Both the position numbers and the translations under genes were made by a program. Below, piece by piece: positions 3,468 through 59,986 of a stretch of DNA of 64,000 nt (position 1 is its first letter; every line of letters begins with the position of its first letter). The DNA comes from a virus (lineage: Duplodnaviria; Heunggongvirae; Uroviricota; Caudoviricetes). The stretch is from IMG/VR virus record IMGVR_UViG_3300001688_000696; one strand, 5' to 3'. The notes below the pieces were generated by a model. The model was not told the DNA's origin and searched no databases. It saw nothing but the letters and a program-made list of their open reading frames with translations.

Positions 3468-3530
3468 CTTACCATATTACAAGGAGTCTAAATTGATAGT
3501 TATATCAGTATGGGGAAATAGAACAAAAAA

Positions 3531-3912: not shown

Positions 3913-3989
3913 CATTCACCCCGAGCCGGGGCGGGTAATCCCCGGTATTGGTCCAGGAATTAGCCCTCGCCGGGGAGGCGGTCAGCCCC

Positions 3990-4125: not shown

Positions 4126-4214
4126 CATCTTCGGATGGGCCGTTCACGCCGAACTCGGAAGCCACCCGCTAAAGCGGGTGGTGCTTCACCGTCTGTTAGA
4201 TAGACAACTATGAA

Positions 4215-5238: not shown

Positions 5239-5377
5239 TAAATAGCATATTGAAACGGAATTCGCTGAAAAATAAGTTTAAACATACAAGGGTGTAAGGT
5301 AAAATTTTCGGCGTTTGGTTATAATTTCTCCCTTGCAAGAACTTGCTGTTATTCCATAAAAATTGAAGTTAGGGCTT

Positions 5378-12708: not shown

Positions 12709-12742
12709 AAAGTCCCCGGTAATCCGGGGACTTTTTGTTTTA
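12709..12742. terminator. bidirectional intrinsic terminator shared by convergent genes
   Basis: gtccccgg taat ccggggac hairpin flanked by an A-run and a T-run. Confidence 0.7.
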
Positions 12743-17550: not shown

Positions 17551-18573
17551 CTATTTGGTCAGTTTCACAATCAGCGGTTCTTGCTTGATAAGACTGATGT
17601 TCGCCGGGTCAAACCGGGATTTTTCCACCAGCTTATAAATGTCATCGATGCTAAAGCCCTTCTGAAAGGTTTTCTTCGGGGTCAGCCAGCCATCTTGCTC
17701 CGGTGTCCAATCGGAGTTCATCTGTTGGTTGAGTTCCTTTGCGGTACGCACTGTCAGGAACAACGTGCCACCCGTGGGAAGGAAATCAAAAATCTCGTTC
17801 AGAACGGCGATGCGCTCCGGTTCGTACAGCGTGTTCAACACGTATGTACAGGTGACGGTTGAGAACCTGCCTGCTTCAAAATCCGCAGGCTTCCGTTCAC
17901 AACGGTGGTTAGGGTCGTAGCCATCGGCATCCAAACCACTCTGGCGGTAGAACTCGATGTCCGTTCCGTAGCCGCAGCCCCAATCAAACACATTCCTTGC
18001 CAGCAATCCTTTTTTCACCAACAGCCGGGCGGTCACTGATGGCGCTGTGCGGTGGATGGCGGTCTTGCCGGACATTTCAAGGGAACTGCCGGACGAAATG
18101 GGTTTCAGCTCGTGGTTTTCAATCCGCAGTCCCTTTTGTGTCAGTAGGTTTTCCCAATAATTTTTCCGCCCAATAAAGCGCAGATGCTCGGGGGCGTATA
18201 ATCCCGCCTGTTCTTCGGCGGCGGTCAAGGCGGCAAATTGTGCGTATTGCGGATGGGCTTCAGAAACGAAGGTTTCCTTGCGGTGCAAAATCAGTGGGTT
18301 ATTGGGCGAACCATTTCCACGCTTGACCTGGCCGCCGGGCATCTCGACCTTGACCCATGCCACCAGTTCGGGGTGCGGGTCGGCGTCAAAATCACGGTAC
18401 TGGCTGAAGGTGACGCTACGCCGGTCTCTGGAAACCTTGATGAGATTCCAATCAAATTCATCTGGCAAATATTTCTTCGCGCTTTCAACCAACTCAGCAT
18501 CCACTTCGTCTAAAAGCGCCTGATAAGAACGGTGAATGTAGATGTTTCCAAAAACGTTTTTGGGCATTTTCAA
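17551..18573 (-). CDS. SAM-dependent methyltransferase-fold protein (VFDWGCGYGTD motif I) with N-terminal extension
   Basis: Class I methyltransferase glycine-rich motif in the C-terminal half. The N-terminal ~180 aa are of unknown function. Confidence 0.65.
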   Translation of the reverse strand: MKMPKNVFGNIYIHRSYQALLDEVDAELVESAKKYLPDEFDWNLIKVSRDRRSVTFSQYRDFDADPHPELVAWVKVEMPGGQVKRGNGSPNNPLILHRKETFVSEAHPQYAQFAALTAAEEQAGLYAPEHLRFIGRKNYWENLLTQKGLRIENHELKPISSGSSLEMSGKTAIHRTAPSVTARLLVKKGLLARNVFDWGCGYGTDIEFYRQSGLDADGYDPNHRCERKPADFEAGRFSTVTCTYVLNTLYEPERIAVLNEIFDFLPTGGTLFLTVRTAKELNQQMNSDWTPEQDGWLTPKKTFQKGFSIDDIYKLVEKSRFDPANISLIKQEPLIVKLTK

Positions 18574-25985: not shown

Positions 25986-26869
25986 CATCGAAACCTGTTG
26001 AAAAAATCCTTGTAGGTGGCGATGCCCGCACGGTGCAGACAGTAAACAAATTTTGTCTCTTGTTGCGGGTTGTCACGATTGCTAGTAGACAGGAAATAGA
26101 GACAGTACCGGCAATTCAAAGCCAATCCCCATTTGATATGTTTTAGGCAGGTCGTGTTATTTTCCTGCAAGGGGCAGCCCATTACAACCCAATCGTTCAG
26201 CGAATCATTGAAGTTGACTGCCCTCTGGTCAGCCATTGATGCCATCGTTACCCAGATTTGTTCTGGCATCGGATTGTTCAACCAGTTCATCATGCGCACC
26301 GGATTGGTGAGGATTTTGGCAAGTTCCTGACGGTCTGGAAAATGTCTAAGACGATGTAAATCGACCTCAATCGCCGGCCAACCGTTTTGCTCAATGATGC
26401 GAAGTTTTTCCCGCCCAACGCGGTGAGTGACGTAGATTTCAAGCAGCAGTGGTTCGCCAGCGGAAAAGATAACGATGTCCGGGACAATCCTACCCAGTCT
26501 GGTTTCCAGCGCCACTTCGTCAATTTTGACTTCGATTTTTTCGTCTTTACGAAAGGTGCGATATACCCGGCGAAAGTAAACGCTGCGACCAGAACGGGTG
26601 AAAAACGATAAAAATTCAATCCCGTATCCCGGAATAAAAATGGTTTTTTGCTGGCTGAGGATTTCTTTCGTCAGAAGGTGCAGTGTGGTTTCGCCAGCCC
26701 ATTCGCATTCCGGCGAATTGAGATGGGCGAAGTGATGGATTTTGATGCTCCCCTTACGGGCGACCAGCGGGGCGTTGCAGGTGGGGCAGATGCACTGACA
26801 GGCAGCTCCGCTTTCGACTTCAGAGATATGAACCAGCTTGCCGTTTTTTAGGCCATAGGGAATTTTCAT
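25967..26869 (-). CDS. CoiA-like competence protein family nuclease
   Basis: N-terminal CICPTCNAPLVARKGSIKIHHFAHL, matching the CoiA signature recalled from memory. The 3' end overlaps the tRNA-Glu 3' end by ~19 nt on the opposite strand. Confidence 0.6.
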   Translation of the reverse strand: MKIPYGLKNGKLVHISEVESGAACQCICPTCNAPLVARKGSIKIHHFAHLNSPECEWAGETTLHLLTKEILSQQKTIFIPGYGIEFLSFFTRSGRSVYFRRVYRTFRKDEKIEVKIDEVALETRLGRIVPDIVIFSAGEPLLLEIYVTHRVGREKLRIIEQNGWPAIEVDLHRLRHFPDRQELAKILTNPVRMMNWLNNPMPEQIWVTMASMADQRAVNFNDSLNDWVVMGCPLQENNTTCLKHIKWGLALNCRYCLYFLSTSNRDNPQQETKFVYCLHRAGIATYKDFFNRFRCLPKRI

Positions 26870-42129: not shown

Positions 42130-42858
42130 CTACCAATCGTCTCCCTCGCCGTAGTAGCCGTAATCTTCATCTGTTCCCCATCCGATGCTGCGCAGCCCGC
42201 TTTCGTGGTCGCCGTCCATGTAGTCATCGTAGCGCTCGTCCGAGTAGCGTTCCAGCTCGCTGAAGTAGTTCGCATATTCATCAATCACTTCAGCAATATT
42301 GACCGGAATTTCACGATAATCCATGACCTTCGTGCCAAAAATGGCATCATCAATCTCGACGTAATTCATCTCCTGATTGTCTGGGTCAGCGTGCCAGTCA
42401 ATGCTGCTGATGCGATAAAAGTTATCTTCCATTTGCAACACGTAATCATAAGATTCTGTGTGTTTATCCACCGGCATCTTATACAGGGAAAAGTCGTATC
42501 CATTCGACCACAAATTCAAGGACAGATATTCATTTGAGTCAAAGGTCTTCACGCGGTCAGGATTAAGGTAATCAACCATGTGGGCAATTTGCGCCCGCAG
42601 CTTATTGCAAAAATCCAAATCGTCCAGCGGCAGGCTTTCGGCAAAATCTTCGCCAAACTTGTCTGCAAAATATTCTCGCAGGTCGTAGACGGTCACAATA
42701 TCGTTGAGTCCAATGTTGATAGCCTTCGCACGGGCGATTACCAAATCCGCAACCTCGGCCAGAGATTTGCCCGGATTTTGTGCCCCTTGAATCGGAACGT
42801 TTCCGTTTTTGTCCGAAATTTCATTCGGATGCTTTGATTTGTCACTGCATTCCATCAT
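42130..42858 (-). CDS. hypothetical highly acidic protein (243 aa; DEDYGYYGEGDDW tail)
   Basis: ATG 42858 with RBS aggag. Confidence 0.6.
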   Translation of the reverse strand: MMECSDKSKHPNEISDKNGNVPIQGAQNPGKSLAEVADLVIARAKAINIGLNDIVTVYDLREYFADKFGEDFAESLPLDDLDFCNKLRAQIAHMVDYLNPDRVKTFDSNEYLSLNLWSNGYDFSLYKMPVDKHTESYDYVLQMEDNFYRISSIDWHADPDNQEMNYVEIDDAIFGTKVMDYREIPVNIAEVIDEYANYFSELERYSDERYDDYMDGDHESGLRSIGWGTDEDYGYYGEGDDW

Positions 42859-43094
42859 GACATCTCCTAAAAATTCTTTTCTTGATGGACGTTTTCGCTG
42901 CTTATATAATAGGAAATGGAACAAAAAAGGGCGGTCTTAACCTCCCTTCGACTTCAGATACCGGCTGTAATCATTGGCTGGCGTTGGGGTGGTTTTTGGA
43001 ACCGACGCGCCATCTACCGTTGGATATGGAGAACGAGGAACGGTTGATATGATAGCGGTAGCTGTTTGGTGCGATGCCTGAACAATAAGGGGAA

Positions 43095-46206: not shown

Positions 46207-46397
46207 CCAATGCGCTCCTTTTTCAAAACACTTTATTACTATATAGTAGGACGAAAAAGGGGGGGGATTTTACCGTTTAGTCCAAAATTAATCTCCCATT
46301 AAATGAAAATGAAACAAACCAGTTGAATTCGTCTAATAATCGTCATTAAAACGCATATGTTTTTTTGTCAGACATTTTTAGTAGAGAAAGGAATACC

Positions 46398-48089
46398 ATG
46401 AGGGATATTCTTTGGAAGCAAGCTGGAATACTGATTCTCCTACTGATTGCCTTATTTTTACTTTTCGACAATCAGCCCTCTCAAGTCGTCTATGCCGGTA
46501 GCGAAGCCTGCGGGTCGGGGCAGACCTGTTATTCTAGCTTCAGTTATTCGGATGTAACGTCATGTACGGCTGTTTATCGTTGTGCTGGTTGCAATCCTCT
46601 ATACCAGTGCAATAATGCTGGTACGACTACCAAAACCGCTTCGTGTAATACATCTAGCGGACACTGTGAAACATCCTATACCCGCTTTTACTGCGATGGG
46701 TACGGTTCACAAACGGGAAACTGCCCACGACTTACCACCACTGACAGCCGCGGTTGCTGCGGTTCTGGTGGCAGCGGCGGTGGCGGAGGAGGCGACAGTG
46801 GTGGCGGCAGTGGATGTACGATGGTCGTCCCCACCGGGCTAAAGGTTATCGGTACTCAAATTTCGTGGAATTCAATTCCTGGGGTAACGCAATATGATGT
46901 TCGCATCGATGATATGACTGCGAATGGCTGGAATGGTGATTGTGGTGCGCCATTATCCGGCGACTATTGTGTTAACCGATATGCCAGCACAACAATGTCA
47001 TGGAATTTTGTATCGGGGCATACATATCACGTGTGGGTACATGCCCGCATGTGTGGCGGCGTTACCGATGCGGTTCACCTAACCGGAGTGATGATTCTTC
47101 CGAAAGTAACCGGTATCAAAGTTACCTGTGCGGCTGATGCAAAAAAGGCGACTGTTACCTGGAATGCCATTAGTGGCGCAAGCCAATATCAGCTCCGGGT
47201 GAATGTTGACCCTGTATCACAGTGGGCGGGCTGTCCGGCTGCGGGCTGCGACCCAAACGATTATTCGAATTATTACACAACGAATTCGGCTACAATTTCA
47301 ACAACGCCCAATTCACCATTCCAGGTCAATGTCCAGGCTATAAAAAGCGGGGAAACGTATCCATACCCAGCGCCGTGGTCGGACTGGATTAGCGCCAAGT
47401 GTGTTCCTGCCACACCGACAAGGACGCCGACACGCACACCAACGCGGACTCCAACTCGCACACCAACGCGGACTCCGACTCGCACGCCGACACGCACGCC
47501 GACTCGTACTCAGCCGCCTCCGGCAACCAACACGCCGACCCGGACACCGACTTCGGCGGCAACCGCCACACCTTATCCAAATGAGATAGTTGGGTCTATC
47601 TCTGCTGGTTTGCTGCCCGCTTACCAATGGAACGCCAGAGATGCCGACCCGGTGCTGAACCTGCCCACTTTTAACTTGGAGGTTCGCAACTACTACTTGA
47701 CTGACAAGATTTACATCAAGTTGGATGCGCCAGTTGGCAATTTCTACACCTATGTCTTAACTGGTGATGATGTTACGGCTTTAGGGCTTCCTTATGATGC
47801 TGCGACACATACGCTGACATTGAACGCCACACCAGAACTCATGGATGCGATTGAAAGACAGGTCGGCGCAATGGATGGTCTTACACCGCTAAGTCGCTGC
47901 CCGGTTAACCGGAATCGGTTGTGTTGGGGAACAACAATTGGTTCAAAACGCGACGATACTTTCACCAAGCCATCAGATGCGATTGGTGAATGGACAATTT
48001 CGGTTTGGGCTGAACATATCAGCGGTGTCCAGTCAAACACAGTAACGGGCACGTATAGAGTTACCACAACGCTCATCGGAGAGCATTAG
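46398..48089 (+). CDS. secreted Cys-rich protein with Gly-rich and (PTRT)n linkers, FN3-like domains and shared C-terminal CWGTT domain
   Basis: ATG 46398 with RBS aaagga. Signal-like TM. Linkers GSGGSGGGGGGDSGGGSG and TPTRTPTRTPTRT. C-terminal PVNRNRLCWGTTIG...KPSDAIGEWTISV. Confidence 0.75.
   Translation: MRDILWKQAGILILLLIALFLLFDNQPSQVVYAGSEACGSGQTCYSSFSYSDVTSCTAVYRCAGCNPLYQCNNAGTTTKTASCNTSSGHCETSYTRFYCDGYGSQTGNCPRLTTTDSRGCCGSGGSGGGGGGDSGGGSGCTMVVPTGLKVIGTQISWNSIPGVTQYDVRIDDMTANGWNGDCGAPLSGDYCVNRYASTTMSWNFVSGHTYHVWVHARMCGGVTDAVHLTGVMILPKVTGIKVTCAADAKKATVTWNAISGASQYQLRVNVDPVSQWAGCPAAGCDPNDYSNYYTTNSATISTTPNSPFQVNVQAIKSGETYPYPAPWSDWISAKCVPATPTRTPTRTPTRTPTRTPTRTPTRTPTRTPTRTQPPPATNTPTRTPTSAATATPYPNEIVGSISAGLLPAYQWNARDADPVLNLPTFNLEVRNYYLTDKIYIKLDAPVGNFYTYVLTGDDVTALGLPYDAATHTLTLNATPELMDAIERQVGAMDGLTPLSRCPVNRNRLCWGTTIGSKRDDTFTKPSDAIGEWTISVWAEHISGVQSNTVTGTYRVTTTLIGEH
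47414..47510 (+). repeat. 12-nt tandem repeat (~8 units) encoding (PTRT)n
   Basis: ccgacacgcaca / ccaacgcggact units, read directly. Confidence 0.8.
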
Positions 48090-48838: not shown

Positions 48839-49912
48839 TCAATCCGCATCGAAATTTAGCAACTGTTCGATTTTGTCCGCCACTTCCGGGCTGATGACTT
48901 TAGCGATTTGTTCCTTCAAACTTAAATCATCCCATTCGCACATAAGCTCGGCGCGCCTTTCTTCAGCGCCTTCGCCATAAATAGTGGAAAAGTTTGCCCG
49001 ATGGATGGAGTAGATAATTTTTTCGAGTTCCAAAACATTGATATGCGGCTTTGTTGGGATATTAGAAACTCCATAGTCAACCAGGTCATATGGTGTGATA
49101 TTCCCAAAGCTGAAGTGCTGCCGCTCGCCGTTCTCGACAAAAAAATTAACCCGCTCATTCATACTGTTGATGAAATAGGAATAGCCGTTTTTTTCTGTCA
49201 AAATCCGGTCGAACTCATCGCTGACCTCTTTGACCTTCTGGATATATCTATCAACCTTGCTTCCATAGCATTTCTTTGCAGCGAAAGCCATCCGCCCGTT
49301 ATGTCCGAAATCTCCGCCAATAGAATGCAAATCAATGCCAAGCTGGGTCATGGCGATTTTGTCGCCGTAATTCAGGGCGTACTCACGGATTTCGTCACCG
49401 GATGCGTTCCGGGGCAGGCGGGGTATCCACCAGCGTTTTGTGTTTTTGCCAATCTTTTTCCATCCTTGACCTTTGATGAAATAATCCGGGTCGCTCGCTT
49501 CAACCGGGATGTACTGCTGCGTACTCTTATCGTAAACAGCCAGAATTTCCTTTTCTGTGACCGTTGCCATGCCATTCGGCCAAAAGTTTCCCCTGACACC
49601 ATCGGTATCTTTTTCCGGGTCATATTTCCGCCGTTCCACGCCGCGCAACTGGCGGAACTGGTTGACCATTTTCAATTCCAGCAAAGCAAATGGCTTTTTG
49701 GCAAAATCATCCTTTTCCAACTTGCCATATTCAGAACGAACCATCTCGATAATGGCTTCAAGCGTTTGTGGGTCTTTGATATTTGCGGTTGCCGCAGAGA
49801 GATTGTCAACGCTGAAATTCAGTGCCTTATCCAGCTCCGCCCACATCGCTATATCTTCATCAGAACGGTGGGTTTCAAAATTCTTTTTGAATTCCTGATA
49901 AGCTTTTTGCAA
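48839..49912 (-). CDS. hypothetical protein; N-terminal part separated in another frame (50063..49966) by a homopolymer frame change
   Basis: Main ORF has only a TTG start. Upstream ORF MKCRKQVKELQKTFASSGTMVAKAAALKGEKVR* has RBS aagga. They meet at ctgaagggggaaaaagta (G5A5; plus strand T5C5 at 49973-49982). Deleting one G gives ...AALKGKKYDNEALKFFAGYL... in frame. Same orientation as, and directly downstream of, the methyltransferase at 50116. Confidence 0.6.
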   Translation of the reverse strand: MQKAYQEFKKNFETHRSDEDIAMWAELDKALNFSVDNLSAATANIKDPQTLEAIIEMVRSEYGKLEKDDFAKKPFALLELKMVNQFRQLRGVERRKYDPEKDTDGVRGNFWPNGMATVTEKEILAVYDKSTQQYIPVEASDPDYFIKGQGWKKIGKNTKRWWIPRLPRNASGDEIREYALNYGDKIAMTQLGIDLHSIGGDFGHNGRMAFAAKKCYGSKVDRYIQKVKEVSDEFDRILTEKNGYSYFINSMNERVNFFVENGERQHFSFGNITPYDLVDYGVSNIPTKPHINVLELEKIIYSIHRANFSTIYGEGAEERRAELMCEWDDLSLKEQIAKVISPEVADKIEQLLNFDAD

Positions 49913-50115
49913 AGCTGCACTATAAACGGGCAGATAGCCAGCGAAAAATTTCAGCGCCTCGTTATCGTACTTTTTCCCCCTTCAGCGCGGCAGCCTTAGC
50001 AACCATAGTGCCGGAACTGGCGAAGGTTTTCTGCAACTCTTTAACTTGCTTACGACATTTCATGATTTTTTATCCTTTGATATTTGGATGATAGCAAGCA
50101 AAAAGCCGCCTATTT

Positions 50116-50874
50116 TCAGGCGGCCTTTTCCAGTCTATTTTTTGCCAGCTCAAACGAAGTCGGGTCAATTTCAACCCCGATAAAATTTCTACCAGTCTGT
50201 CTGGCAACCAGACCGGTTGTACCCGAACCCATAAACGGGTCAAGGACGGTCACGCCGACCCAACTGTACAGCTTGATGCAGCGGTAGGGGAGTTCTTCCG
50301 GGAAGGGAGCGTTGTGCCCCAACACATTTTTTCCTTTTGAATTGATTTTGACCTTGCCGGGGAACGACCAGACCGATTTGGTGAATTTTGCAAATTCTTC
50401 TTTGGTCAGGTCGCTGACGCCTTTCGTCATCAACTTTCGCTGCATCTTATAAAACACGAAAACAAACTCATGGTCAGGTCGCACCGATGGGCAGGACGGA
50501 GATTTAAACGACCCCCATGCAGTGCTACCTACATGGTTCGGCTTGTACCAGATGTGAGTTGCCCGCCACATCCAGCCAAGATGAATGATTTTGGGAAACA
50601 GCTCCCAGATATTCCAGCGGTTTTCGCCGTTACTGGTGCTTTCAGGCAGGTTCAGGCACAGCCGGCCACCCGGCTTTGTCACCCGGTAAATCTCAGCCAA
50701 ACGCTCCAGCAGCCAACAGAAATAAGTGGTCGCCGAACGGTTGTCGTCAAAAGTTTTGTAATCTATCCCTACGTTGTAGGGTGGACTGGTCACAGTCAGG
50801 TCAACCGTGTCGGCTGGCAGCCCCTTCAGAATATCCAGGCAATCTCCCAAATAAAGTTGGCATGTCGTCGTCAT
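50116..50874 (-). CDS. DNA methyltransferase, beta-class N6A/N4C
   Basis: N-terminal LTVTSPPYNVGIDY. C-terminal DPFMGSGTTGLVARQTGRNFIGVEID. Confidence 0.9.
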   Translation of the reverse strand: MTTTCQLYLGDCLDILKGLPADTVDLTVTSPPYNVGIDYKTFDDNRSATTYFCWLLERLAEIYRVTKPGGRLCLNLPESTSNGENRWNIWELFPKIIHLGWMWRATHIWYKPNHVGSTAWGSFKSPSCPSVRPDHEFVFVFYKMQRKLMTKGVSDLTKEEFAKFTKSVWSFPGKVKINSKGKNVLGHNAPFPEELPYRCIKLYSWVGVTVLDPFMGSGTTGLVARQTGRNFIGVEIDPTSFELAKNRLEKAA

Positions 50875-51016
50875 TTAAAGCTCCCATCTTTCCCGGTTGT
50901 CTTGCGCATGGGGAAGACGGGGAGCGCCAGGGATGAACAATTTTTGAAAACTGGCTGCTGTGGTTTGTTGTTAAAGGAAGTGACCGCCTTCAAGCAGGCG
51001 GCGACTTTTATTGAGA

Positions 51017-51490
51017 TTACAATGCTGTAAGCCGGTATTCCAGCACCGAAACGCTCCGCCCGGCAAGCCCGATTTGGGCGGTCTCCTGCCAGCCTCGTTT
51101 CTGAAACCAGTCCGCATGGTTGGCTGTCCAAAGGTACAGCCGGTGGCGGTTCAATTCACGAGCGGTTTCGCAAACGGCATCAAGGAAAGAAGTCTCAATT
51201 CCCTGACCCCGGTACTTCGGGAAAATATAAAAGGACAGCCACGGCTTCAGATGAGAAAATCCGGGCAAATCATCCGTCGGTGTAATATATGCAAAACCGC
51301 ACAGCTTTTTTCCATCGAGGGCTATCAAGGTCAGAGGGAGTTCAATTTTGTTACGGCTGTGCCGGAAACCTCTAGCTACACGTTCAATTCTCATTTGCGG
51401 AATAAATGGTTTTCGTTTTTTATAAAAAGCCAGAGAAATTGGAAATGTGTGTTCTGGATAATCGCTAAGATATTCAACGGTGATAGTCAT
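51017..51490 (-). CDS. GNAT family N-acetyltransferase
   Basis: FYIFPKYRGQGIETSFLDAVCETARE motif A (RxxGxG/A). Size 157 aa. Confidence 0.8.
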   Translation of the reverse strand: MTITVEYLSDYPEHTFPISLAFYKKRKPFIPQMRIERVARGFRHSRNKIELPLTLIALDGKKLCGFAYITPTDDLPGFSHLKPWLSFYIFPKYRGQGIETSFLDAVCETARELNRHRLYLWTANHADWFQKRGWQETAQIGLAGRSVSVLEYRLTAL

Positions 51491-51582
51491 ATGTTTATAT
51501 GATAGAAAATAGCGCTCACCTCTAAATAGCGCCCAATTGTCTAGACCTATAATAGAAATAAATATTGTGTGGAAGGACAGAG

Positions 51583-51834
51583 ATGAAGATGCAGAATCAA
51601 CTCAATATCGCTTTGGACGATGCGGCTGGTTGGGCGAGGCATTACCGGGAAACCGGGCAGTATCCGCCAGCCGGTGCGGTCATCAACTGGCAGGTGACTG
51701 TTTATGACCCGGAAGAGAACCAAATTGCGAAATGGACAATTGAAGGGCGCACGCAGCAGGAAGCTGCTGCGGAAGCGGAAGCCGATATTTTTTATATCAC
51801 TGATGCGGACGATTGGACGCTGGTTCCGGCGTAG
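51583..51834 (+). CDS. hypothetical protein (83 aa)
   Basis: RBS aaggacag. -10 TATAAT at 51548-53. Terminator follows. Confidence 0.55.
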   Translation: MKMQNQLNIALDDAAGWARHYRETGQYPPAGAVINWQVTVYDPEENQIAKWTIEGRTQQEAAAEAEADIFYITDADDWTLVPA

Positions 51835-51854
51835 CTTATATTTTGCGCCACCAC

Positions 51855-51884
51855 AAAAAAGACCGGGCTGACCGGTCTTTTTTG
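51855..51884. terminator. bidirectional intrinsic terminator
   Basis: aaaaaagaccgg gctga ccggtctttttt. Confidence 0.8.
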
Positions 51885-51899
51885 TCAACTGGATACGGT

Positions 51900-52223
51900 T
51901 CAATAACTGCTTCCTCTGCAAAACTTCACCACATCGATGTGGATAGTGTTATCCGGGACGATTTCATCCAGCTTGGTAATCCCCCATTCACAGCCCTGAA
52001 TGAGCCAATCTTTCAAAGTGTCAAGCGACCGCTGGAAAATATCCCCCGCTTCGTTTGTTGGGGTGTTGAGAACGGCAGGGAACAGCAGGATAATGATGAC
52101 CCCGGCGATAATCGTTGCCCCAATCACAGCTTTTGCCGCCTTCAGCAAAATTTCCGCAAGAACCAGCACAATCATCAAAACAAATACGCCAATCACAATC
52201 GTTGGTAGATAATCGCCTAACAT
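51900..52223 (-). CDS. small two-TM membrane protein (107 aa), holin-like topology
   Basis: ATG 52223 with RBS aaggag. Two hydrophobic helices followed by a charged tail. Confidence 0.5.
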   Translation of the reverse strand: MLGDYLPTIVIGVFVLMIVLVLAEILLKAAKAVIGATIIAGVIIILLFPAVLNTPTNEAGDIFQRSLDTLKDWLIQGCEWGITKLDEIVPDNTIHIDVVKFCRGSSY

Positions 52224-52389
52224 AATGCCTTTTCTCCTTGTGTTTATTGTTACTAACAAGACGCGTAAAACCGAATATTGGCATAAAACGGCGAAATTGC
52301 TTTTTGCCAGTTTGCTATCATCGAACTGCGCGCCGAACTTTTTAAACATCATAGTGTCGACAAATATTTATGTTGTGGGGAGTTCGAGA

Positions 52390-52803
52390 ATGGACTTGCA
52401 GGAATTTTGTGACTTAATTGATTTTCAGGCAAACCGGTGCGTTTTGAGCTATTTCGGACTGAAGCCGTATGTCAACCGGAAGGGAAAATCCATCTTGTGC
52501 TGCTGGTTCCACTTCGATATTGAAGGACACGACCGTTATCAGGCGGTTGAACTGCCTGCCATTAACCCTTCCAATGGCGAGCCGATTTATATGGGAGAGG
52601 TTGGCAGCCCGTTCATGAACTACTTTACCGAAGGCATGGAAGGCTTTGTGTTGGAAAGCATCGAAACGCCTTTCCCCGAGCTGGATGAAAACTTCATCGT
52701 ACTGATTGTTGCACCGTCACCGGAGGCGACGGCAAAAGAACATCGCATGTACAATTTGCACAGGGATGCGGTTTTGCGGGCAGAGCTGTTCGAGAAGGAT
52801 TAG
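52390..52803 (+). CDS. hypothetical protein (137 aa)
   Basis: ATG 52390 with RBS ggggag. Confidence 0.55.
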   Translation: MDLQEFCDLIDFQANRCVLSYFGLKPYVNRKGKSILCCWFHFDIEGHDRYQAVELPAINPSNGEPIYMGEVGSPFMNYFTEGMEGFVLESIETPFPELDENFIVLIVAPSPEATAKEHRMYNLHRDAVLRAELFEKD

Positions 52804-52936
52804 CGCAAATCGTCCCGAAAACGCCACTTCTCGTCCATGAAAAAAACAGAATCCCCTTGAATTTTCAAAAATATTGTGCCATACTAATTATACAAAATAA
52901 GATTGCTTTTGACAGGGGATAATAAATAACAGGCAG

Positions 52937-53113
52937 AATGACGAACTCAACACGCAGGAAGCGACCGAATTGGCTCAGGTTTACGGCGTACAGGCTACTC
53001 CGCAGTCGATTTGGTACGCAGCCTACAGCGGTTATCTTCCCGGCGCGGTGCGGAACGGTTCTGATTATCGCATCCCGGTCAATAGACTGATGAATTACAT
53101 CCGCCCGCAGTAG
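52937..53113 (+). pseudogene. excisionase/AlpA-family HTH DNA-binding ORF lacking an in-frame canonical start
   Basis: Frame translation NDELNTQEATELAQVYGVQATPQSIWYAAYSGYLPGAVRNGSDYRIPVNRLMNYIRPQ* fits the excisionase-family HTH pattern. The frame opens at 52913 with no ATG, GTG or TTG before the HTH. An ATG at 52938 lies one nucleotide out of this frame. Confidence 0.45.
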
Positions 53114-53229
53114 GGCGGCCTTATCCTGACTTTTTGCCCGCCAGATATTCTGACGGGTTTTGTTTTGGGAACAAAAAATGTAGTTATTTCGCCTTATTTA
53201 AATAACACAATTGTGAAGGAGAAACATCT

Positions 53230-53655
53230 ATGAGGTCTTACTTTCGTTTTGCTATTTTCGTTATGATTTTCGTTTTCCTGGCGGCATGTCAAGCGCGGCC
53301 TGAAGCGACTCTGCCGGTAGAACCAGAACCAACCGCGGAGGATTTGCCCGCGCTTATCACCTCGATTACCCCCGAAGAAGTCGCGCCGGTCGTAGATGCC
53401 AAAACTGGCAAGGTCAGCGTGCTGTTTAGCGGGTACATGGGGGCGTGCGAGACTCTGAATATCGTTGTATCCAAACCGGACGAGAACAACCGCATCAATG
53501 CAAAGGTCTACACGGTCAACGAAAATCCCGAACAAGTTTGCATCGAAATTGCGCTGAAGTTTGACAAAATCATAGAGTTGGGCACCCTCACTCCGGGCGA
53601 GTACAGCATCCTAGTCAACGATACAGACCAGATTATCAGCTTTATTGTCGAATAG
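53230..53655 (+). CDS. lipoprotein (LAAC), hypothetical
   Basis: RBS aaggag. Signal + lipobox. Confidence 0.7.
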   Translation: MRSYFRFAIFVMIFVFLAACQARPEATLPVEPEPTAEDLPALITSITPEEVAPVVDAKTGKVSVLFSGYMGACETLNIVVSKPDENNRINAKVYTVNENPEQVCIEIALKFDKIIELGTLTPGEYSILVNDTDQIISFIVE

Positions 53656-53675
53656 ACCATATCCCAACAGGCACA

Positions 53676-53711
53676 AAAGCGGCGGTACTTAGCCGCCGTT
53701 TTTCTTTTTAA
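53676..53711 (+). terminator. intrinsic terminator
   Basis: gcggcgg tactta gccgccg + T-run. Confidence 0.8.
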
Positions 53712-53777
53712 GTGCAAAAACGCCCTGGCATCCGTTCCCATTCGTCTTTTTGAAAACGAATATCTGCCGAGGTCAAC

Positions 53778-54977
53778 ATGGAGTGCAAAAACCGGATAAA
53801 ACATGCAGTTGAGCGAGTAAAAGAAAGCGGCGGAGTGAATGCCGAGCAAAGTAAGGCTCTGGACGAACTGTTTTCCCCGTTTTCCAGTTTTACAGACGTG
53901 CGCAGGTACATTCTCGCAAAGGAAAACCTGCGCCGCAGCAACAATTCATGGCGCGTGTTTCAAGCCCTGCTGTTTACCGCCCAAATAGATGCAGAGATAA
54001 AAGAACAGTACCAAAAAGTTATCGAGGAGATGATTGGCGCGCTCAAAGATTATCTGGACGGGGCGAACAGTGATTACGAATATGCGACCGTTCTCAAAGA
54101 CCTGCTTTCCAGCCTGCACAACAGCCAGAAATTTTTTGCCAATGGGCAGGAAGTTTATCTTTCCCGTTCCGAATTTGACCAGCTCACTGAAATGCTTCCG
54201 AAGCTGGAAAAGAAAGTCAAGGAAGATTACGGAAACAGCCTGTGTGTGACGCGGTGCAAAAAGTGTGGCTGGCAAATTGGCATCCCCAAAAAATACGGAA
54301 TTCATGGAATGAACGATGTGGATGCCTGTCCCAACTGCACGCCTGGACTTCCGGTAAGCACCCGCTGCGAGCAGGAGAGCGGAGACAACTATCTGGTTGG
54401 TAAGTTCGGTGTTTTCTATCTGGACAGGAAGCCCTACCCGTACCTCCATGAGGTCAAAAAAATTGTCCCAATACCGAAAAAAGTTAACTTTACACCCCGT
54501 GACCACCAAAAAGGGCGGATGTATAGTGCAGAGGCCAGATGTGAAATTAAGCAGGATGGCATCCAGTTTCAAAGTTTGGAAGAAATGCAGGCGTATACAG
54601 ATGAACTGGTCTCATCCGATGAATTCCGCAAGCAGTTCGGGGGCGTTGGGCATTTATCGGTGATAAGCAATGAAAACCGAAGCGAATCCTATGCCATGGT
54701 GGATAGCGGCATCATTGCCATTGCCAATTCCATGAAAAATGAATACGTACTTCTGCACGAAATTGCCCACCACATCCTGTGGAACCAGCCGACTTACATC
54801 AAAAATAACCAGCAGCAGCACGGAGCGCTGTACGCCTATATTTTGCTGAAACTCGTGCGCATGAAAATGGGAGACCGTGTGGCAGACAAGCTGGCGAAGG
54901 CTTTTGACGAAGGAAAAGTCAAGTGGCGGGAAGGCAAGCCATTGTTTGATGAAATGCAGCAGGTTATCGTTTATTGA
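53778..54977 (+). CDS. SprT/Wss1-like HExxH protein with Cys4 Zn-ribbon; paralog of 12740..13975
   Basis: LLHEIAHHIL...HGALYAY. Ribbon CKKCGW...CPNCTPG. C-terminal KAFDEGKVKWREGK. RBS gaggt. Confidence 0.7.
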   Translation: MECKNRIKHAVERVKESGGVNAEQSKALDELFSPFSSFTDVRRYILAKENLRRSNNSWRVFQALLFTAQIDAEIKEQYQKVIEEMIGALKDYLDGANSDYEYATVLKDLLSSLHNSQKFFANGQEVYLSRSEFDQLTEMLPKLEKKVKEDYGNSLCVTRCKKCGWQIGIPKKYGIHGMNDVDACPNCTPGLPVSTRCEQESGDNYLVGKFGVFYLDRKPYPYLHEVKKIVPIPKKVNFTPRDHQKGRMYSAEARCEIKQDGIQFQSLEEMQAYTDELVSSDEFRKQFGGVGHLSVISNENRSESYAMVDSGIIAIANSMKNEYVLLHEIAHHILWNQPTYIKNNQQQHGALYAYILLKLVRMKMGDRVADKLAKAFDEGKVKWREGKPLFDEMQQVIVY

Positions 54978-55023
54978 CCAATTTAGTTGAAAACACCTCG
55001 CATCTCAGCAAGAAGTTTACATC

Positions 55024-55058
55024 AAAAAACCGAGTCCAAAATCGGACTCGTTTTTTGT
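55024..55058. terminator. bidirectional intrinsic terminator
   Basis: cgagtcc aaaatc ggactcg + T6. Confidence 0.8.
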
Positions 55059-55085
55059 TTTTTGGTGCTGCCGGTAAATTTCAGG

Positions 55086-55340
55086 TCACTCGATTAGCGC
55101 CAGCTCGGGGATTTCGCCTTCGATGCGCAGCCTGCCCTGCGCTAAATAGTGGTTGACCAAATTTCGCCCCATTCGCCAGTCTTCTCCGGCATTAGGACTG
55201 GACGGCGGGTGTTTAACGATTAAATATCGTGTCGTCCAGCCGACAAATTCCATCTCTTGTTCCGGTGATGAATCATCTGCCATAAAAAAAATTTTCGGAT
55301 TTTGTGACACAGGGATAATTTCGTCGGAATAGCTAGTCAT
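55086..55340 (-). CDS. hypothetical protein (84 aa)
   Basis: RBS aggag. Confidence 0.55.
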   Translation of the reverse strand: MTSYSDEIIPVSQNPKIFFMADDSSPEQEMEFVGWTTRYLIVKHPPSSPNAGEDWRMGRNLVNHYLAQGRLRIEGEIPELALIE

Positions 55341-55515
55341 GGCGGCATTTCTCCTGCTTATCGAGATGGTCTAACCGTGGTTGCCCGCTAGAAACTGCTT
55401 TTCGGAAATTCATTATAATAATACTGCAAAATTGTCGTTTCAGTCGCCGGGCTGCCTATTTTGCAATTCGGACGGAATCGCCTGTGTTTGTAATCGTGCG
55501 GCACAACTTCTTGAA

Positions 55516-55546
55516 GAAAAAATCCGGCACTTGGCCGGATTTTTTG
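55516..55546. terminator. bidirectional intrinsic terminator
   Basis: aaaaaatccggc acttg gccggatttttt. Confidence 0.8.
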
Positions 55547-55568
55547 TCGTAATCAGCCGGTTGTCTGC

Positions 55569-55796
55569 CTACCAACCGAAAAAGCCACTTTTCTGTTTGC
55601 CGCTTTGTTTGGCCGTGCTGCCTTGTTTGGTGACAATCCTCAGGGTTAGCGAACTGCCATCACCATTTCCTTTGACCGGTTCCAGTTCGATGGTCTCGCC
55701 GTCCAAATTCGTGAGTTTGACAACGAGCGTCCCATCGTCCCTATCTTCTACCACCATTTTCCATTGATTGCACTGTTGAGTCATTTTAGAAGCCAT
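55569..55796 (-). CDS. small hypothetical protein (75 aa) directly downstream of a methyltransferase
   Basis: ATG 55796 with RBS gggaga. The track extension to 56186 is antisense to the methyltransferase and is rejected. Confidence 0.5.
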   Translation of the reverse strand: MASKMTQQCNQWKMVVEDRDDGTLVVKLTNLDGETIELEPVKGNGDGSSLTLRIVTKQGSTAKQSGKQKSGFFGW

Positions 55797-55860
55797 TGTA
55801 CTATCTCCCCGAATTCGTTTGAAAGTATAATTATTATAATATGGTTTCAAAAAATGCAAG

Positions 55861-56640
55861 CTACTTTGTGCTTTTAATTCTGTTTTGGGCAATTTCACAA
55901 TAATCCGGGCAGCGTTCAATTCCGAGATAATTGCGCCCGAGCTGTCTAGCAGCCAGGGCGGTCGTCCCCGCCCCCAAAAATGGGTCAAGTACGAGGTCGC
56001 CCACGTAGGAATAATACTCAACCACCTTTTGCGCCAGTTCCAGTGGGAAGGGGGCAGGGTGCCCGACTTTACAGGGGTTTTCCGGGCGGATTTGCCATAC
56101 GTTTGTACGCTCATAGCCGTCTGCAACCAACGAAGCCTGAATAATCTCTGGACTGTGGTCACGAATAGCCAAATCCAGCAGCCCATACCCCCTTTTGAAA
56201 ACCAGCAGGTATTCTGTCACCTGAAACGGCTTGTAGGCAACCGGGCGGCGGTGATGAGCGAACTTGATAGCCCGATTGGATGCCCCATCCGGTTTTACCC
56301 AGATGATGTCATCCACGAATTTGAATCCTGTCTGTGTGGCAATCGGCAGGTAATCGAAAGGGATGGCAAGCCGGGTTGATTCGGTTGAACGCTTTTCGCG
56401 GGGGACAATTACGCAGGACAGGTTGATGACAAAAATGCGATTATCCTTCAAAACCCGGAAAACTTGCTTAGTAACCTGCGACAAAAAATCCAGATACTCC
56501 TGATAGGTGGAATAGCTGGCATACTGCTGGCGGGCGTTGAAGTACGGCGGGCTGGTAAAGCACAAATCAACACAGTTATCGGGCATGGACTTCATCACTT
56601 CCACACAATCGCCCTGAATGATTTGATTGGTCAAATCCAT
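55861..56640 (-). CDS. DNA methyltransferase, beta-class N6A/N4C
   Basis: ATG 56640 with RBS aggagg. N-terminal DLCFTSPPYF. C-terminal DPFLGAGTTALAARQLGRNYLGIE. Confidence 0.9.
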   Translation of the reverse strand: MDLTNQIIQGDCVEVMKSMPDNCVDLCFTSPPYFNARQQYASYSTYQEYLDFLSQVTKQVFRVLKDNRIFVINLSCVIVPREKRSTESTRLAIPFDYLPIATQTGFKFVDDIIWVKPDGASNRAIKFAHHRRPVAYKPFQVTEYLLVFKRGYGLLDLAIRDHSPEIIQASLVADGYERTNVWQIRPENPCKVGHPAPFPLELAQKVVEYYSYVGDLVLDPFLGAGTTALAARQLGRNYLGIERCPDYCEIAQNRIKSTK

Positions 56641-56749
56641 CTGCAATCGAGCCTCCTGCAAGGAGGACGCGCAGAAGGGTGGATAAACAAAAAGTTCCAC
56701 CGTTTAGGTGGAGCTTTAAATAGGGCTGGCAGGTCGCCGGTTTGCTTGG

Positions 56750-57379
56750 TCACATGGTTTCCAAAAGTCCAACAAACCTCCGCCAATCTTCAATCATCTT
56801 TTCGTCATCATCGCTGGCTTTTTGCCCGGTAAACGTCCGTTTGCCATTCAGAATGCCGTCGCTTTCGTTGATAAATGCGCAGACATTTTTCTCATCCCGG
56901 AAACAACCGGCCACCTTGCGAAGCATTCGCTTTTGCTGACTGGTAATCGGCTGGTTCATGGTGATGCAGAGTTCATCGTTTTCCGGGGCTGCTTCCAGCC
57001 GGATATAACCCAACTGTGTCAGCCAATATTTGTAGTGACTGCCAAAATCGTCAATCTCGCCTTCAATCTTCGAGATGAGCCCGGCTTTTTCCAAGGCGAG
57101 GGCGGCGCTTCTCTCGTGCAAATCGCTGCAATAAATAATTCTGCCGTTAGGCGACAGCCAATAGCTTCCCCAAACAAGCCCACAGTATTTTTCATCGAAC
57201 AGCTCCCACGGACGGTCGGTTAAATCAACACGGTCAACAGTATACATATCGGAGGTAAGCAGAGCTTGGTCAACTTCTTCCCAAATCGGTCTATTTCGCT
57301 CTGCGTTCTGAACCGGGACAACTCCCATCCCTTTCGCCTTTTCGGTCGCAACTTTATCCGCGTCTTTGCATTTCATCAT
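56750..57379 (-). CDS. hypothetical protein (209 aa), first gene of a methyltransferase operon
   Basis: RBS ggagg. Confidence 0.65.
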   Translation of the reverse strand: MMKCKDADKVATEKAKGMGVVPVQNAERNRPIWEEVDQALLTSDMYTVDRVDLTDRPWELFDEKYCGLVWGSYWLSPNGRIIYCSDLHERSAALALEKAGLISKIEGEIDDFGSHYKYWLTQLGYIRLEAAPENDELCITMNQPITSQQKRMLRKVAGCFRDEKNVCAFINESDGILNGKRTFTGQKASDDDEKMIEDWRRFVGLLETM

Positions 57380-57540
57380 GGTGGCCTCCGAAATTTTTCT
57401 GTCTAATAGACAAGTCGGAGACCATATCAGTCAAATTTTGAAAACCAGCCCCTGACTCACTTGTTTTTTCAAGAGAGCCGGGGGCTTGCTCGTCTCGCAG
57501 CGGGCTGACCCCTAAAAGTTAGCCCGTTTGCTCTGCAAAA

Positions 57541-58266
57541 TTACATTTCAACCCCCACCCGAAACGCCTTGCCTTTCGTAAAAATCGCCAAAAAACCGAA
57601 AACGCAAATGGCGGAGAACAGGGCGGCGGCTGCGACAAGTGTTTTCCAGCGGATAAATTCACTGGTAACGGTGATAACGATGGGCGTTTCGTTGTTTCCT
57701 TTCCAGACCAGCCCGCCATTTTCATCCACAACACCGTTGGTGCTGATGATTTTTCCGGGCAGTTTGAGCCGGAACTGCGTGTCCATCCACGAAATTCCGT
57801 TGGTATTTTCACCGGCAGCCGGTTTTTCCTGTGCATCCATGCCTACAGAAGCAACCATCTCCGGCATATCCAGGACGGCATCAAACGTTATCCAGTCGGC
57901 AAAAATGTCGCGTTTCAAATGGATAGAAACGCTTTGAAACGCCCCGGTGTTCATCAGCAAATCCTTCAGTTCTTCCAAATTGTCAAATTTAAGCGCCCCT
58001 TCTGCCCAATCGTAGTCGCCGCTGCGATACCGGGAAAACGGCGTGTGCTGGTTTCCGCTTTGCTTTTGAAGGAACTGCTGGAAGCTATCGAAGGGGTCTT
58101 CTTCGCTGGTCATTTCTATCCACACATAGGCTTTGGTTGCAATTCCAACCGCGAGATTGACCACACCAGAGAAGTCTTCGCGAATGGTTACCTCGATTTG
58201 TGTCTGAGCGCATGAGGAAAGAAAAAACGCTGCAAGCAGCAGGGCGATGATGGTGTGATATTTCAT
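57541..58266 (-). CDS. lipoprotein (LSSC) with C-terminal TM anchor, hypothetical
   Basis: Signal + lipobox. RBS gagg. Confidence 0.7.
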   Translation of the reverse strand: MKYHTIIALLLAAFFLSSCAQTQIEVTIREDFSGVVNLAVGIATKAYVWIEMTSEEDPFDSFQQFLQKQSGNQHTPFSRYRSGDYDWAEGALKFDNLEELKDLLMNTGAFQSVSIHLKRDIFADWITFDAVLDMPEMVASVGMDAQEKPAAGENTNGISWMDTQFRLKLPGKIISTNGVVDENGGLVWKGNNETPIVITVTSEFIRWKTLVAAAALFSAICVFGFLAIFTKGKAFRVGVEM

Positions 58267-58431
58267 GGAGATGCCTCGGCTGGAGTCTGTCAGATAAAGA
58301 AATGAGGATATTAATATTAATTATACCATAATAGTAACAAATTATTCTAACAATCCCGAAAAGATGCCGATTTATTGCGAACTTCCCCCCATAGCCGTCT
58401 TTTAACCAGACACCTATCAAGGAGTTCGATT

Positions 58432-59004
58432 TTGAAACACAAACCTGTGATTCGATTTTCTTTCACGAGCCGGGAAATCCGCTTCGCCAGAGACTTCGGC
58501 GCGCGCCGCAATAAATCAAAAGGCGGTGGGGTGGTCACCGCGTCTGGCCGGGACGCCATCCGCGATGAGACGGTTGGCGTACTGGGCGAGATGGCGGTCG
58601 GGAAGTTTTTAGGGCAGCACATCAACACAGAAATTTATGAAGGTGGCGATGACGGCGTGGATTTCCGCTACAAGGGCGTCACCATCGATGCAAAATGTAC
58701 GGAGTACATCAACGGAGTGCTGGTTTTCGACGAGATTAAAAAATTCCGCTCCGATGTCGCCTTCTTCGTCATCGTGACCTATAACGACCGGGACGAGTAC
58801 GGCCGGAAACTACCTGTCCACCAGCACACTGCCAGCGCCAAAATCATCGGATGGCTTTCCAAACGCCAGTTTATCGCCAACTGCGTAGAACGCAAAATAG
58901 GCAGGGAAGTGCGAGTGGTCGTCCCGCAGGAATTGTTGAACCCGGTCGAGACCTTTTATCAATATGATGTCAAGGCAGACCGCAAAGTGACCTGGCGTCC
59001 GTAG
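58432..59004 (+). CDS. PD-(D/E)xK nuclease-like protein (candidate restriction endonuclease partner)
   Basis: TTG start 58432 with RBS aaggag. GDDGVDFRYKGVTIDAKCTE fits D...(D/E)xK. Lies immediately upstream of a methyltransferase in the same orientation. Confidence 0.5.
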   Translation: MKHKPVIRFSFTSREIRFARDFGARRNKSKGGGVVTASGRDAIRDETVGVLGEMAVGKFLGQHINTEIYEGGDDGVDFRYKGVTIDAKCTEYINGVLVFDEIKKFRSDVAFFVIVTYNDRDEYGRKLPVHQHTASAKIIGWLSKRQFIANCVERKIGREVRVVVPQELLNPVETFYQYDVKADRKVTWRP

Positions 59005-59094
59005 TGCAGGTTATCCACACAAATGTGGATAACCTTGCCGCCCAAAAATTGAGCAACGGCGGTGTCACGCGTCTTTCTCCATATCAACCAAAAA

Positions 59095-59931
59095 ATGATG
59101 ATGGAGAGAACCGTGGATACTTGCCTGTATTGTGATGATTGTCTTAATGTTCTCAAAAATTTTTCCCACCAGCCGACTTTGACCTTTTTCGACCCACCGT
59201 TTAATGTCGGAAAAAAATATTACATGCACAATGACAACATGCCCGATGAAGAATATTGGGCATGGATGAGCGAAATCCTTTCGCTTATTCGCAAGCACAC
59301 GCTGCCGGGCGGAAGCATTTATTTCATGCAGCGGGAGAAGAACGCTCACAAGGTGATTGAAACCCTGCTAAAGACCGGGTGGACGTTCAAAAACATGATT
59401 ATCTGGAAGAAGATGACTTCAGCCACCCCGATGACGACCGGATTTGGAAAAAGCTATCAGGTCATCGTTTATGCGACCAAAGGGGAAAAACCGAGGGTTT
59501 TCAACCGTCTGCGCATCGACCCGGAGTTGAAGCCCCACCAAAAGGTTGCTCGCAAAAACGGAATTTTTGTCACGGATGTCTGGGACGATATTCGTGAAAT
59601 GACTTCCGGGTATTTCGCCGGGGCTGAACAGCTCAAAAATGAAAATGGGAAAATGGCGCATCACCAGCAGTCGCCAATCGCCCTTCTGGTTCGCATCATC
59701 CTGTCATCGTCCATGCCTGGAGACGTGGTGTTCGACCCGTTTTCCGGCACCGGCACAACCGTAGTCGCAGCCCGCCAGCTCCGCCGCATTGGAGTCGGGG
59801 TTGAGTGCGACCCGCATTACATGGAACTCATTCAAAAGCGTCTGGCTGACCAGCGGGACTGCGACCGGGTTGACCAGTACCGGGCTGATTACAAACACAC
59901 CCCGAATTTGGAAAAAATTTGGGGGGACTAA
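59095..59931 (+). CDS. DNA methyltransferase, beta-class N6A/N4C
   Basis: N-terminal LTFFDPPFNVGKKY. C-terminal DPFSGTGTTVVAARQLRRIGVGVE. The track start 59062 is GTG. Confidence 0.9.
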   Translation: MMMERTVDTCLYCDDCLNVLKNFSHQPTLTFFDPPFNVGKKYYMHNDNMPDEEYWAWMSEILSLIRKHTLPGGSIYFMQREKNAHKVIETLLKTGWTFKNMIIWKKMTSATPMTTGFGKSYQVIVYATKGEKPRVFNRLRIDPELKPHQKVARKNGIFVTDVWDDIREMTSGYFAGAEQLKNENGKMAHHQQSPIALLVRIILSSSMPGDVVFDPFSGTGTTVVAARQLRRIGVGVECDPHYMELIQKRLADQRDCDRVDQYRADYKHTPNLEKIWGD

Positions 59932-59986
59932 ACTCCCCCAAAAAGGTAAAAAATAAAGCCCACGAGTTGTGGACTTTATTTTTTTA

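Follow-up and report, generated by a model that had tools for sequence, protein, structure and literature searches.

Four divergent beta-class DNA methyltransferase genes and extensive restriction-site loss in a putative huge-phage element

The use of orphan methylases by phages as anti-restriction devices is a well-established concept. For such enzymes, including those of the lactococcal 936-type phages, protection from restriction was shown experimentally (PMC4190342). Huge phages are reported to encode both adenine- and cytosine-specific methylases, which have been read as anti-restriction as well (PMC11748809), and a survey of gut phages counted 3,921 methyltransferases in total across 22,673 genomes (PMC10711547). 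Here we analysed a 64,000-nucleotide stretch of DNA, IMGVR_UViG_3300001688_000696 (hereafter the window, position 1 being its first base). It extends this catalogue with four intact genes for beta-class DNA methyltransferases, called M1 to M4 below, in a genome from which many restriction sites have almost disappeared. The four genes are:

14734-15597, plus strand: M1, beta-class DNA methyltransferase of 287 aa; PF01555 at E 1.5e-35, motifs SPPY and FCGSGTT
50116-50874, minus strand: M2, beta-class DNA methyltransferase of 252 aa; PF01555 at E 3.6e-46, motifs SPPY and FMGSGTT
55861-56700, minus strand: M3, beta-class DNA methyltransferase; PF01555 at E 1.6e-42, motifs SPPY and FLGAGTT
59062-59931, plus strand: M4, beta-class DNA methyltransferase; PF01555 at E 3.8e-42, motifs DPPF and FSGTGTT

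All four proteins matched the Pfam family PF01555 (N6_N4_Mtase) over its full length, profile positions 1-221, with 123.6-158.3 bits against a gathering cut-off of 26.7 bits. In a MAFFT alignment, motif IV lies at residues ~30-50 and reads CSPPY in M1, TSPPY in both M2 and M3, and FDPPF in M4, and motif I follows ~35-80 residues before the C-terminus (~40-60 in M2-M4). With motif IV N-terminal and motif I C-terminal, M1-M4 have the circularly permuted order of the beta class. The preliminary description of this DNA, made from the sequence alone, had listed four intact methyltransferases with an (S/D)PP(Y/F) motif first and motif I last, and the full-length matches (E 1e-35 to 1e-46) and the alignment bear it out on both points. 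The start codons of two genes are less clear. M3 has 279 aa when read from a GTG and 259 aa from the ATG at 56640, which is the likelier start. M4 has 289 aa from its GTG and 278 aa from an alternative ATG at 59095, the start given earlier. In public annotations of near-identical contigs, M2 has 252 aa, M3 has 259 aa (again from the ATG at 56640) and M4 has 272-278 aa.

Pairwise BLASTP identities among M1-M4 are just 27-32 %, so the genes are not recent duplicates. This agrees with the earlier view of them as clearly divergent and leaves no room for near-identical copies; judged from their sequences, they are either old paralogues or independent acquisitions, in any case anciently diverged. 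The reported clustering of three of them within 10 kb was confirmed too, M2-M4 occupying the 9.8 kb from 50116 to 59931. The M2 protein is present in identical form on 12 contigs with the same gene context, and its closest phage relatives, the methylases of cyanomyophage S-CAM3, share 42 % identity with it. Among 50,697 phage records, relatives of M2 were found in 880 and relatives of M4 in 1,040, with 1.02-1.04 places per positive record. Four beta-class methyltransferases in 64 kb are clearly dense.

The best matches of M1-M4 among solved structures are exclusively DNA methyltransferases, which speaks for DNA, and against RNA or protein, as the substrate of these enzymes. For M1 the best relative is 8S9M (E 7.7e-45, residues 9-240), the N4CMT of Adineta vaga, a cytosine-N4 enzyme (PMC10406627). 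M2 and M3 are both best matched by TTHA0409 (2ZIE), at 4e-22 and 3e-30 respectively, followed by cytosine-N4 enzymes and CcrM. M4 is best matched (E 6e-20 to 1e-16) by CcrM, M.MboIIA and M.BceJIV (8URK/9C3U), the structure entries of the last describing an adenine-N6 enzyme (PMC11380664). The scores against NCBIfam equivalog models were all far under the cut-off (for M4, 96 vs 830 with CcrM and 116 vs 292 with PRK11524), hence none of M1-M4 is an orthologue of a named enzyme. By similarity and motif, on which all assignments to N4-methylcytosine (4mC) or N6-methyladenine (6mA) are based here, M1 is probably cytosine-N4 specific and M4 probably adenine-N6 specific. The SPPY motif of M2 and M3 suggests cytosine-N4 methylation, with some uncertainty. 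M1 seems close to the lineage from which the rotifer N4CMT arose and may be a useful 4mC enzyme.

Avoidance of restriction sites is known from phages, and the GATC-free genome of Staphylococcus phage K is an example. The window has no GATC in its 64,000 bases, where ~245 are expected from a Markov model and 250.7±15.4 from shuffling, and the site is equally absent from the 10-kb flanks on both sides (L007, L009), that is, from ~83 kb. GGWCC occurs once against 100±10 expected, GGCC 84 times against 261, CGCG 107 times against 251 and CCCGGG twice against 27. CTGCAG, GGCGCC, GAGCTC and GACGTC are missing altogether, and GATATC and CAGCTG were found once each. Over the six-base palindromes the median ratio of observed to expected counts (O/E) is 0.57, as opposed to 1.00 for non-palindromes, and 16 of the 56 palindromes have an O/E below 0.3, a value reached by 0.3 % of non-palindromes. 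The genome around M1-M4 is thus under very strong selection against restriction sites. Not all short sites are depleted: CCGG (O/E 1.11), GTAC (1.12), GCGC and TCGA (0.91) are not, and CCNGG and GCNGC exceed the expectation from base composition. These non-avoided sites could be candidate targets of the methylases, and as such they offer starting points for tests of the four specificities. In a sister element (L111, L114), whose proteins share 43-44 % identity with those encoded here, GATC has a normal density and GGWCC is low. The M1-M4 genes themselves contain no GATC (~13 expected), and their GC content, overall and at third codon positions (GC3), lies within ~1.5 standard deviations of the window mean, near the values of the other genes; on both grounds M1-M4 seem to be long resident in this genome. 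A recent horizontal arrival of the four genes was ruled out by the same two features.

We consider it reasonably probable that M1-M4 are the solitary methylases of a huge-phage-like element, which protect its DNA from host restriction and complement the loss of sites. Each would act alone and, after entry or during replication, methylate the DNA of the element itself at one of four different short motifs, M1 making N4-methylcytosine and M4 N6-methyladenine if their relatives are a guide. The methylated motifs would become resistant to Type II and Type III restriction enzymes of the host. The second strategy would be the outright loss of other sites, such as GATC, GGWCC, GGCC, CTGCAG and GGCGCC. 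The preliminary description had proposed a counter-restriction role from the number of methyltransferases, and the site counts (none of ~250 expected GATC, one of ~100 expected GGWCC) now give it independent backing. As to the specificities of the enzymes, their orphan status and whether the element is viral, this reading is something that we infer.

Several points weigh against such a protective role. Since many sites are already purged, the methylases might serve regulation, packaging or self-marking instead. Restriction enzymes are notoriously hard to spot by sequence and all neighbours here are ORFans; in addition, an open reading frame (ORF) directly upstream of M4 has a predicted PD-(D/E)XK nuclease fold and could form a restriction-modification pair with it. 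No capsid, portal, terminase or tail gene was found among the ORFs scanned, which represent ~83 kb of an element of at least ~408 kb (see below), and the lineage was not found in IMG/VR by an exact 33-mer or by two protein-guided scans. Lastly, toxin-antitoxin genes and an ISL3 transposase occur in the sister element, and the element studied here could therefore be a megaplasmid or some other kind of extrachromosomal element.

The first of these points leads to the idea that the methyltransferases serve the physiology of the element itself, through epigenetic timing, recognition of a packaging site or self-marking against a nuclease that the element encodes. Packaging-site recognition is known from phage P1, the pac site of which is marked by Dam methylation. 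The closest solved relatives of M4 fit this idea, CcrM and M.BceJIV being regulatory orphan methylases (PMC11380664), and so does N4CMT, the closest relative of M1, which is an epigenetic enzyme (PMC10406627). With most of the common restriction sites gone there is less need for protective methylation, and potential nucleases are encoded in the ORF upstream of M4 (58432-59004) and in a CoiA-like gene at 25967-26869. However, known regulatory roles would not call for four different specificities, real restriction pressure is evident from the strong site avoidance, and the genes are not kept in the syntenic regions of the sister element, which suits fast-turnover cargo of an arms race better. 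We therefore regard a physiological role as unlikely.

The CoiA-like gene (minus strand) was recognised by its N-terminal zinc finger at E 7e-10, and it is not adjacent to any of the DNA methyltransferases. CoiA proteins carry a nuclease domain. Likewise not adjacent to them is a class-I S-adenosylmethionine-dependent methyltransferase at 17551-18573 on the minus strand (Methyltransf_23, E 1.8e-12). About 2.7 kb past the window end, a protein of 179 aa (L007, 14224-14763) has a motif-IV region, SVDGVLYDPPYSPR, and scored E 7e-7 with a custom methyltransferase hidden Markov model (HMM). It matched no Pfam family, is conserved in the sister element (L114, 1484-2053) and may be a small additional methyltransferase, as far as this motif is a guide. 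No full-length methyltransferase was present in the syntenic neighbourhoods of the sister element, only an ORF of ~190 aa with a DPPY motif ~8 kb from one of them, and on account of this absence M1-M4 look like accessory cargo.

To judge the orphan status of M1-M4, the following features around the genes are relevant:

14127-14654, plus strand: ORFan of 175 aa (188 aa from an upstream ATG), directly upstream of M1 on the same strand
48839-49912, minus strand: ORFan downstream of M2, immediately adjoining on the same strand
50983-51002: terminator-like hairpin between M2 and the upstream GNAT gene
51017-51490, minus strand: GNAT acetyltransferase upstream of M2; PF00583 at E 4.5e-8
56696-56712: terminator-like hairpin between M3 and the upstream ORF
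56750-57379, minus strand: acidic ORFan of 209 aa, upstream of M3 on the same strand, bearing a recurrent N-terminal leader
58432-59004, plus strand: putative nuclease of 190 aa with a PD-(D/E)XK fold, directly upstream of M4 on the same strand
59948-59984: bidirectional terminator-like hairpin with a 16-bp stem, between M4 and a convergent ORF of 381/390 aa

No restriction enzyme was found by Pfam or NCBIfam among the neighbours of the methyltransferases. For M1-M4, PADLOC matched methyltransferase models alone; neither the tested neighbours nor a further 45 window ORFs had a match. A defence island, another candidate considered, was ruled out by the same scan. In particular, the ORFan upstream of M1, which begins with the leader MECGKTITHAVSNALEAGG, had no match in NCBIfam, PADLOC or the pooled Pfam and PHROG scans of the 45 ORFs, and the acidic ORFan upstream of M3 had none in Pfam, NCBIfam or PADLOC. 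The ORFan downstream of M2 is a gene of 407 aa in other assemblies (48839-50062), the copy in the window being frameshifted by one base near codon 28, either by strain variation or by an assembly error. A word-indexed search recovered as its relatives only itself and one protein of the sister element, with 43 % identity; within 10 kb of the latter no methyltransferase gene of full length was present, the DPPY-motif ORF of ~190 aa being ~8 kb distant. Terminator-like sites are frequent in the window, 34 being observed against 16±3.4 expected, and each methyltransferase appears to form its own small transcription unit, which fits individual accessory cassettes. We infer orphan status for M1-M4 from the absence of partners. 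The earlier label of orphan methyltransferases thus holds in so far as no recognisable restriction endonuclease lies beside them, and it is weakened by the ORF with the PD-(D/E)XK fold upstream of M4.

This ORF was modelled by AlphaFold2 with a predicted local distance difference test score (pLDDT) of 91.7, and in the model it has the PD-(D/E)XK nuclease fold. Residues E53, D73, D77 and the (D/E/Q)xK motif at K88 are conserved in an alignment of 50 homologues. An exhaustive HMMER search yielded a family of 255 cluster representatives, consisting of 160-200 aa proteins of tailed phages; 33 of the 50 homologues belong to phrog_18407, and BFVD contains dozens of uncharacterised tailed-phage proteins that resemble it. 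A word-indexed search returned only the query and one protein of the sister element, and tblastn against phages gave no match. Together with M4, this nuclease might constitute a complete Type II restriction-modification system that excludes competitors or degrades host DNA. The two genes lie on the same strand 57-108 nucleotides apart, they are bracketed by a divergent gene and the strong bidirectional hairpin, and the catalytic E...D...D...(D/E/Q)xK residues are retained. Against a cognate pair stand the breadth of the family in tailed phages, the lack of a match to any PADLOC restriction-enzyme model and the surroundings of the homologues: in all three informative contexts (L011, L013/L014, L016), searched by Pfam and a custom HMM, there was no methyltransferase near the nuclease, which was accompanied by ParB/NYN, ribonucleotide reductase or sugar-modification genes. 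Three contexts are a small sample, and from them the adjacency of M4 and the nuclease seems more likely incidental than cognate; we hold a complete system to be improbable.

The M2 region was found in two independent assemblies, which contain it on a contig of 112,589 bp and one of 112,727 bp. A 295,894-bp contig, from the ENA sample that also yielded the 112,589-bp contig, covers the left part of the window. The ends of both contigs map to ~47.35-47.7 kb of the window, inside the Pro/Thr repeat of a 574-aa gene (46365-48089). The product of this gene, with its TPTRTPTR... repeat, is a secreted-looking protein, and the repeat probably caused the assembly break. As the window bridges the 295,894-bp and 112,589-bp contigs, the element would measure at least ~408 kb. 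The Pfam and PHROG scans covered ~65 of the ~90 window ORFs of at least 50 aa and the annotated 10-kb flanks. Most ORFs, including all the largest, matched neither Pfam nor PHROG, and several PHROG families were matched by others. Megablast of 49-61 kb against phages gave no match, and a scan of GTDB with the PAS-GGDEF protein of the window recovered only generic GGDEF-domain matches from many phyla. A T4 Rnl1-like RNA ligase is encoded in the flank just upstream of the window (L009). The window contains 10 tRNAs, whose copies with the same anticodon are highly divergent in sequence, in two arrays ordered by amino acid:

21502-22062: Phe(GAA) twice, then Ser with the anticodons GGA, GCT, TGA and CGA
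25682-25986: four Glu, with the anticodons TTC, CTC, TTC and TTC

A huge phage is the most probable identity of the element; its bacterial host may be a Firmicute or a member of the Chloroflexi. The other possibility is that the region is not viral but belongs to a megaplasmid or chromosomal island, with the methyltransferases as the modification halves of cellular defence systems. The missing virion and terminase genes in 83 kb and the lack of a close or element-specific IMG/VR match speak for it, as does the cellular-looking content of PAS-GGDEF, SPFH, CAP, thioredoxin, lipoprotein and GNAT genes. The sister element points in the same direction with ParE/Phd, NERD, an ISL3 transposase and a response regulator; it also encodes Spore_III_AA and C39 peptidases. 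However, no defence or restriction model other than those for methyltransferases matched any scanned ORF, and cellular DNA seldom has such a share of ORFs without a Pfam match, the largest ones included. The tRNA arrays with their divergent same-anticodon copies, the T4-type RNA ligase and the PHROG matches are further arguments for a virus, and near-total avoidance of palindromes is typical of invaders. A cellular origin therefore seems to us quite improbable.

Several further observations concern the element as a whole. Its signalling or host-manipulation genes include a PAS-GGDEF diguanylate cyclase (5363-7318, plus strand), a CAP-domain protein, an SPFH protein and a thioredoxin, and just upstream of the window (L009) there are genes for an ADP-ribosylglycohydrolase, a dual-specificity phosphatase and an ADP-ribosyl-toxin-like protein. 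The window also contains eight perfect TTGACA-N16-18-TATAAT promoters, with none expected from shuffling, and several of them have a TG-extended -10 box:

2439, 3561, 7376, 21230 and 26923, plus strand: perfect promoters
44338, 48550 and 62342, minus strand: perfect promoters

Those at 2439 and 3561 are near-identical 29-mers flanking a segment that varies among strains (2341-4189 is absent in L008).

Two further components of the counter-restriction repertoire proposed in the preliminary description could not be substantiated. One was a degenerate fifth methyltransferase, the other a set of acidic DNA-mimic-like proteins, for which the candidates are:

4215-5165, plus strand: acidic protein of 316 aa with an isoelectric point of 4.2; PF14300 (DMP19) at E 6.3e-4, 20.7 bits against a cut-off of 25
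21082-21291, plus strand: ORF of 69 aa, claimed as the C-terminal remnant of a methyltransferase; unconfirmed

The sub-threshold DMP19 match was the only one of its kind; the other acidic ORFs (20573-20941, 42130-42924 and 2409-2942) matched no DNA-mimic family, so that nothing above threshold was obtained. The claimed remnant had no Pfam match even at E<=1, and NCBIfam and PADLOC, searched at E<=0.01, gave nothing for it either. We searched it also with custom HMMs built from M1-M4 of the window and then from M1-M4 plus four more sequences from IMG/VR loci. It ranked first among ~1,536 six-frame fragments that are not methyltransferases, but the match spans just 24-28 residues and is weak, at 8.6 bits (E 0.086) and 7.2 bits (E 0.31). 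Its residues 16-43, AARDAGLKSVGIDLSATYCENAKS, align in the correct C-terminal register to aakqlgrnfiGieidpkyfelakn, just past motif I, a segment generic to Rossmann-fold methyltransferases. The 3′ part of the ORF contains the perfect TTGACA-N17-TATAAT promoter at 21230-21258, which precedes the tRNA array beginning at 21502. The remnant is thus statistically unsupported.

Near M1 and M3 there are two paralogous genes of another kind:

12740-13975, minus strand: protein of 411 aa with zinc ribbon and HExxH, paralogue of 53778-54977; divergent from M1 and 0.76 kb upstream of it
53778-54977, plus strand: zinc-ribbon protein of 399 aa, putative zinc metallopeptidase with CxxC...CPxC and LLHEIAH...HG; ends 0.9 kb from M3

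They share 28 % identity (E 3e-43) and a common LLHExAH...HG motif. The Pfam matches were weak, to a SprT-like family for the 399-aa protein and to Peptidase_M91, SprT-like and YgjP-like families (E 0.004-0.035) for its paralogue. A word-indexed homologue search with the 399-aa gene returned only the query and one protein of the sister element, and AlphaFold2 modelling of the paralogues from three sequences reached a pLDDT of 59, a quality that does not allow a fold search.

A common N-terminal leader, M-x(1,2)-C-[KRSGTE]-x-[KDN] ... (E/H/S/A)-G-G, in which the G-G stands ~16-20 residues in (for example MNCRDKTKPANNENTKEGGG), is present on at least 14 ORFans that are unrelated in other respects, as opposed to ~2 expected by chance (binomial P ~4e-8). 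The carriers include immediate neighbours of all four methyltransferases and both zinc-ribbon/HExxH paralogues, and the leader-bearing genes start at:

4215, 14127, 22324, 30423, 38799 and 53778, plus strand
13975, 24677, 36100, 41556, 42858, 57379 and 61132, minus strand
the 407-aa gene downstream of M2 (L001)

Such a leader might serve in processing or targeting, either as a double-glycine-type cleavage site or as a capsid-targeting sequence of the kind found in T4 internal proteins. Two C39-like peptidases are encoded by the sister element. It is conceivable, if rather far-fetched, that the methyltransferases are one layer of a coordinated counter-defence arsenal, in which leader-bearing proteins are packaged and injected, or secreted, with the DNA and the adjoining nuclease destroys foreign DNA. 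If this were true, the PD-(D/E)XK nuclease beside M4 could let a GATC-free, self-methylated element destroy the DNA of the host or of competitors.

Compared with the described enzymes, M1 shares with N4CMT the SPPY and FxGSGTT motifs and aligns with it over residues 9-240, but N4CMT has a eukaryotic chromodomain context that M1 does not have. CcrM, M.BceJIV and M.MboIIA, all beta-class N6-adenine enzymes, are the closest solved relatives of M4, whose DPPF motif is typical of adenine-N6 enzymes; by its equivalog scores, M4 is nevertheless an orthologue of neither CcrM nor PRK11524. Like the orphan Type II methylases of 936-type and huge phages, M1-M4 are small, single-domain proteins without a recognisable cognate endonuclease, and the phage enzymes are likewise scattered single accessory genes that are taken as a shield against host restriction. 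In contrast to those phages, the element here is only probably viral. Sequenced phages with a relative of M2 or M4 usually have one copy, whereas the 64 kb of the window hold four deeply divergent members of the same family, with 9.8 kb enough for three of them, and show in addition the near-complete loss of many restriction sites. Several solitary methylases combined with wholesale site loss show heavy shaping of a very large uncultured element by restriction. In the avoidance known from phage K, GATC is likewise wholly absent and short palindromes are broadly depleted; here, in contrast, the avoidance occurs alongside four methylases, and a related sister element has a normal GATC density.

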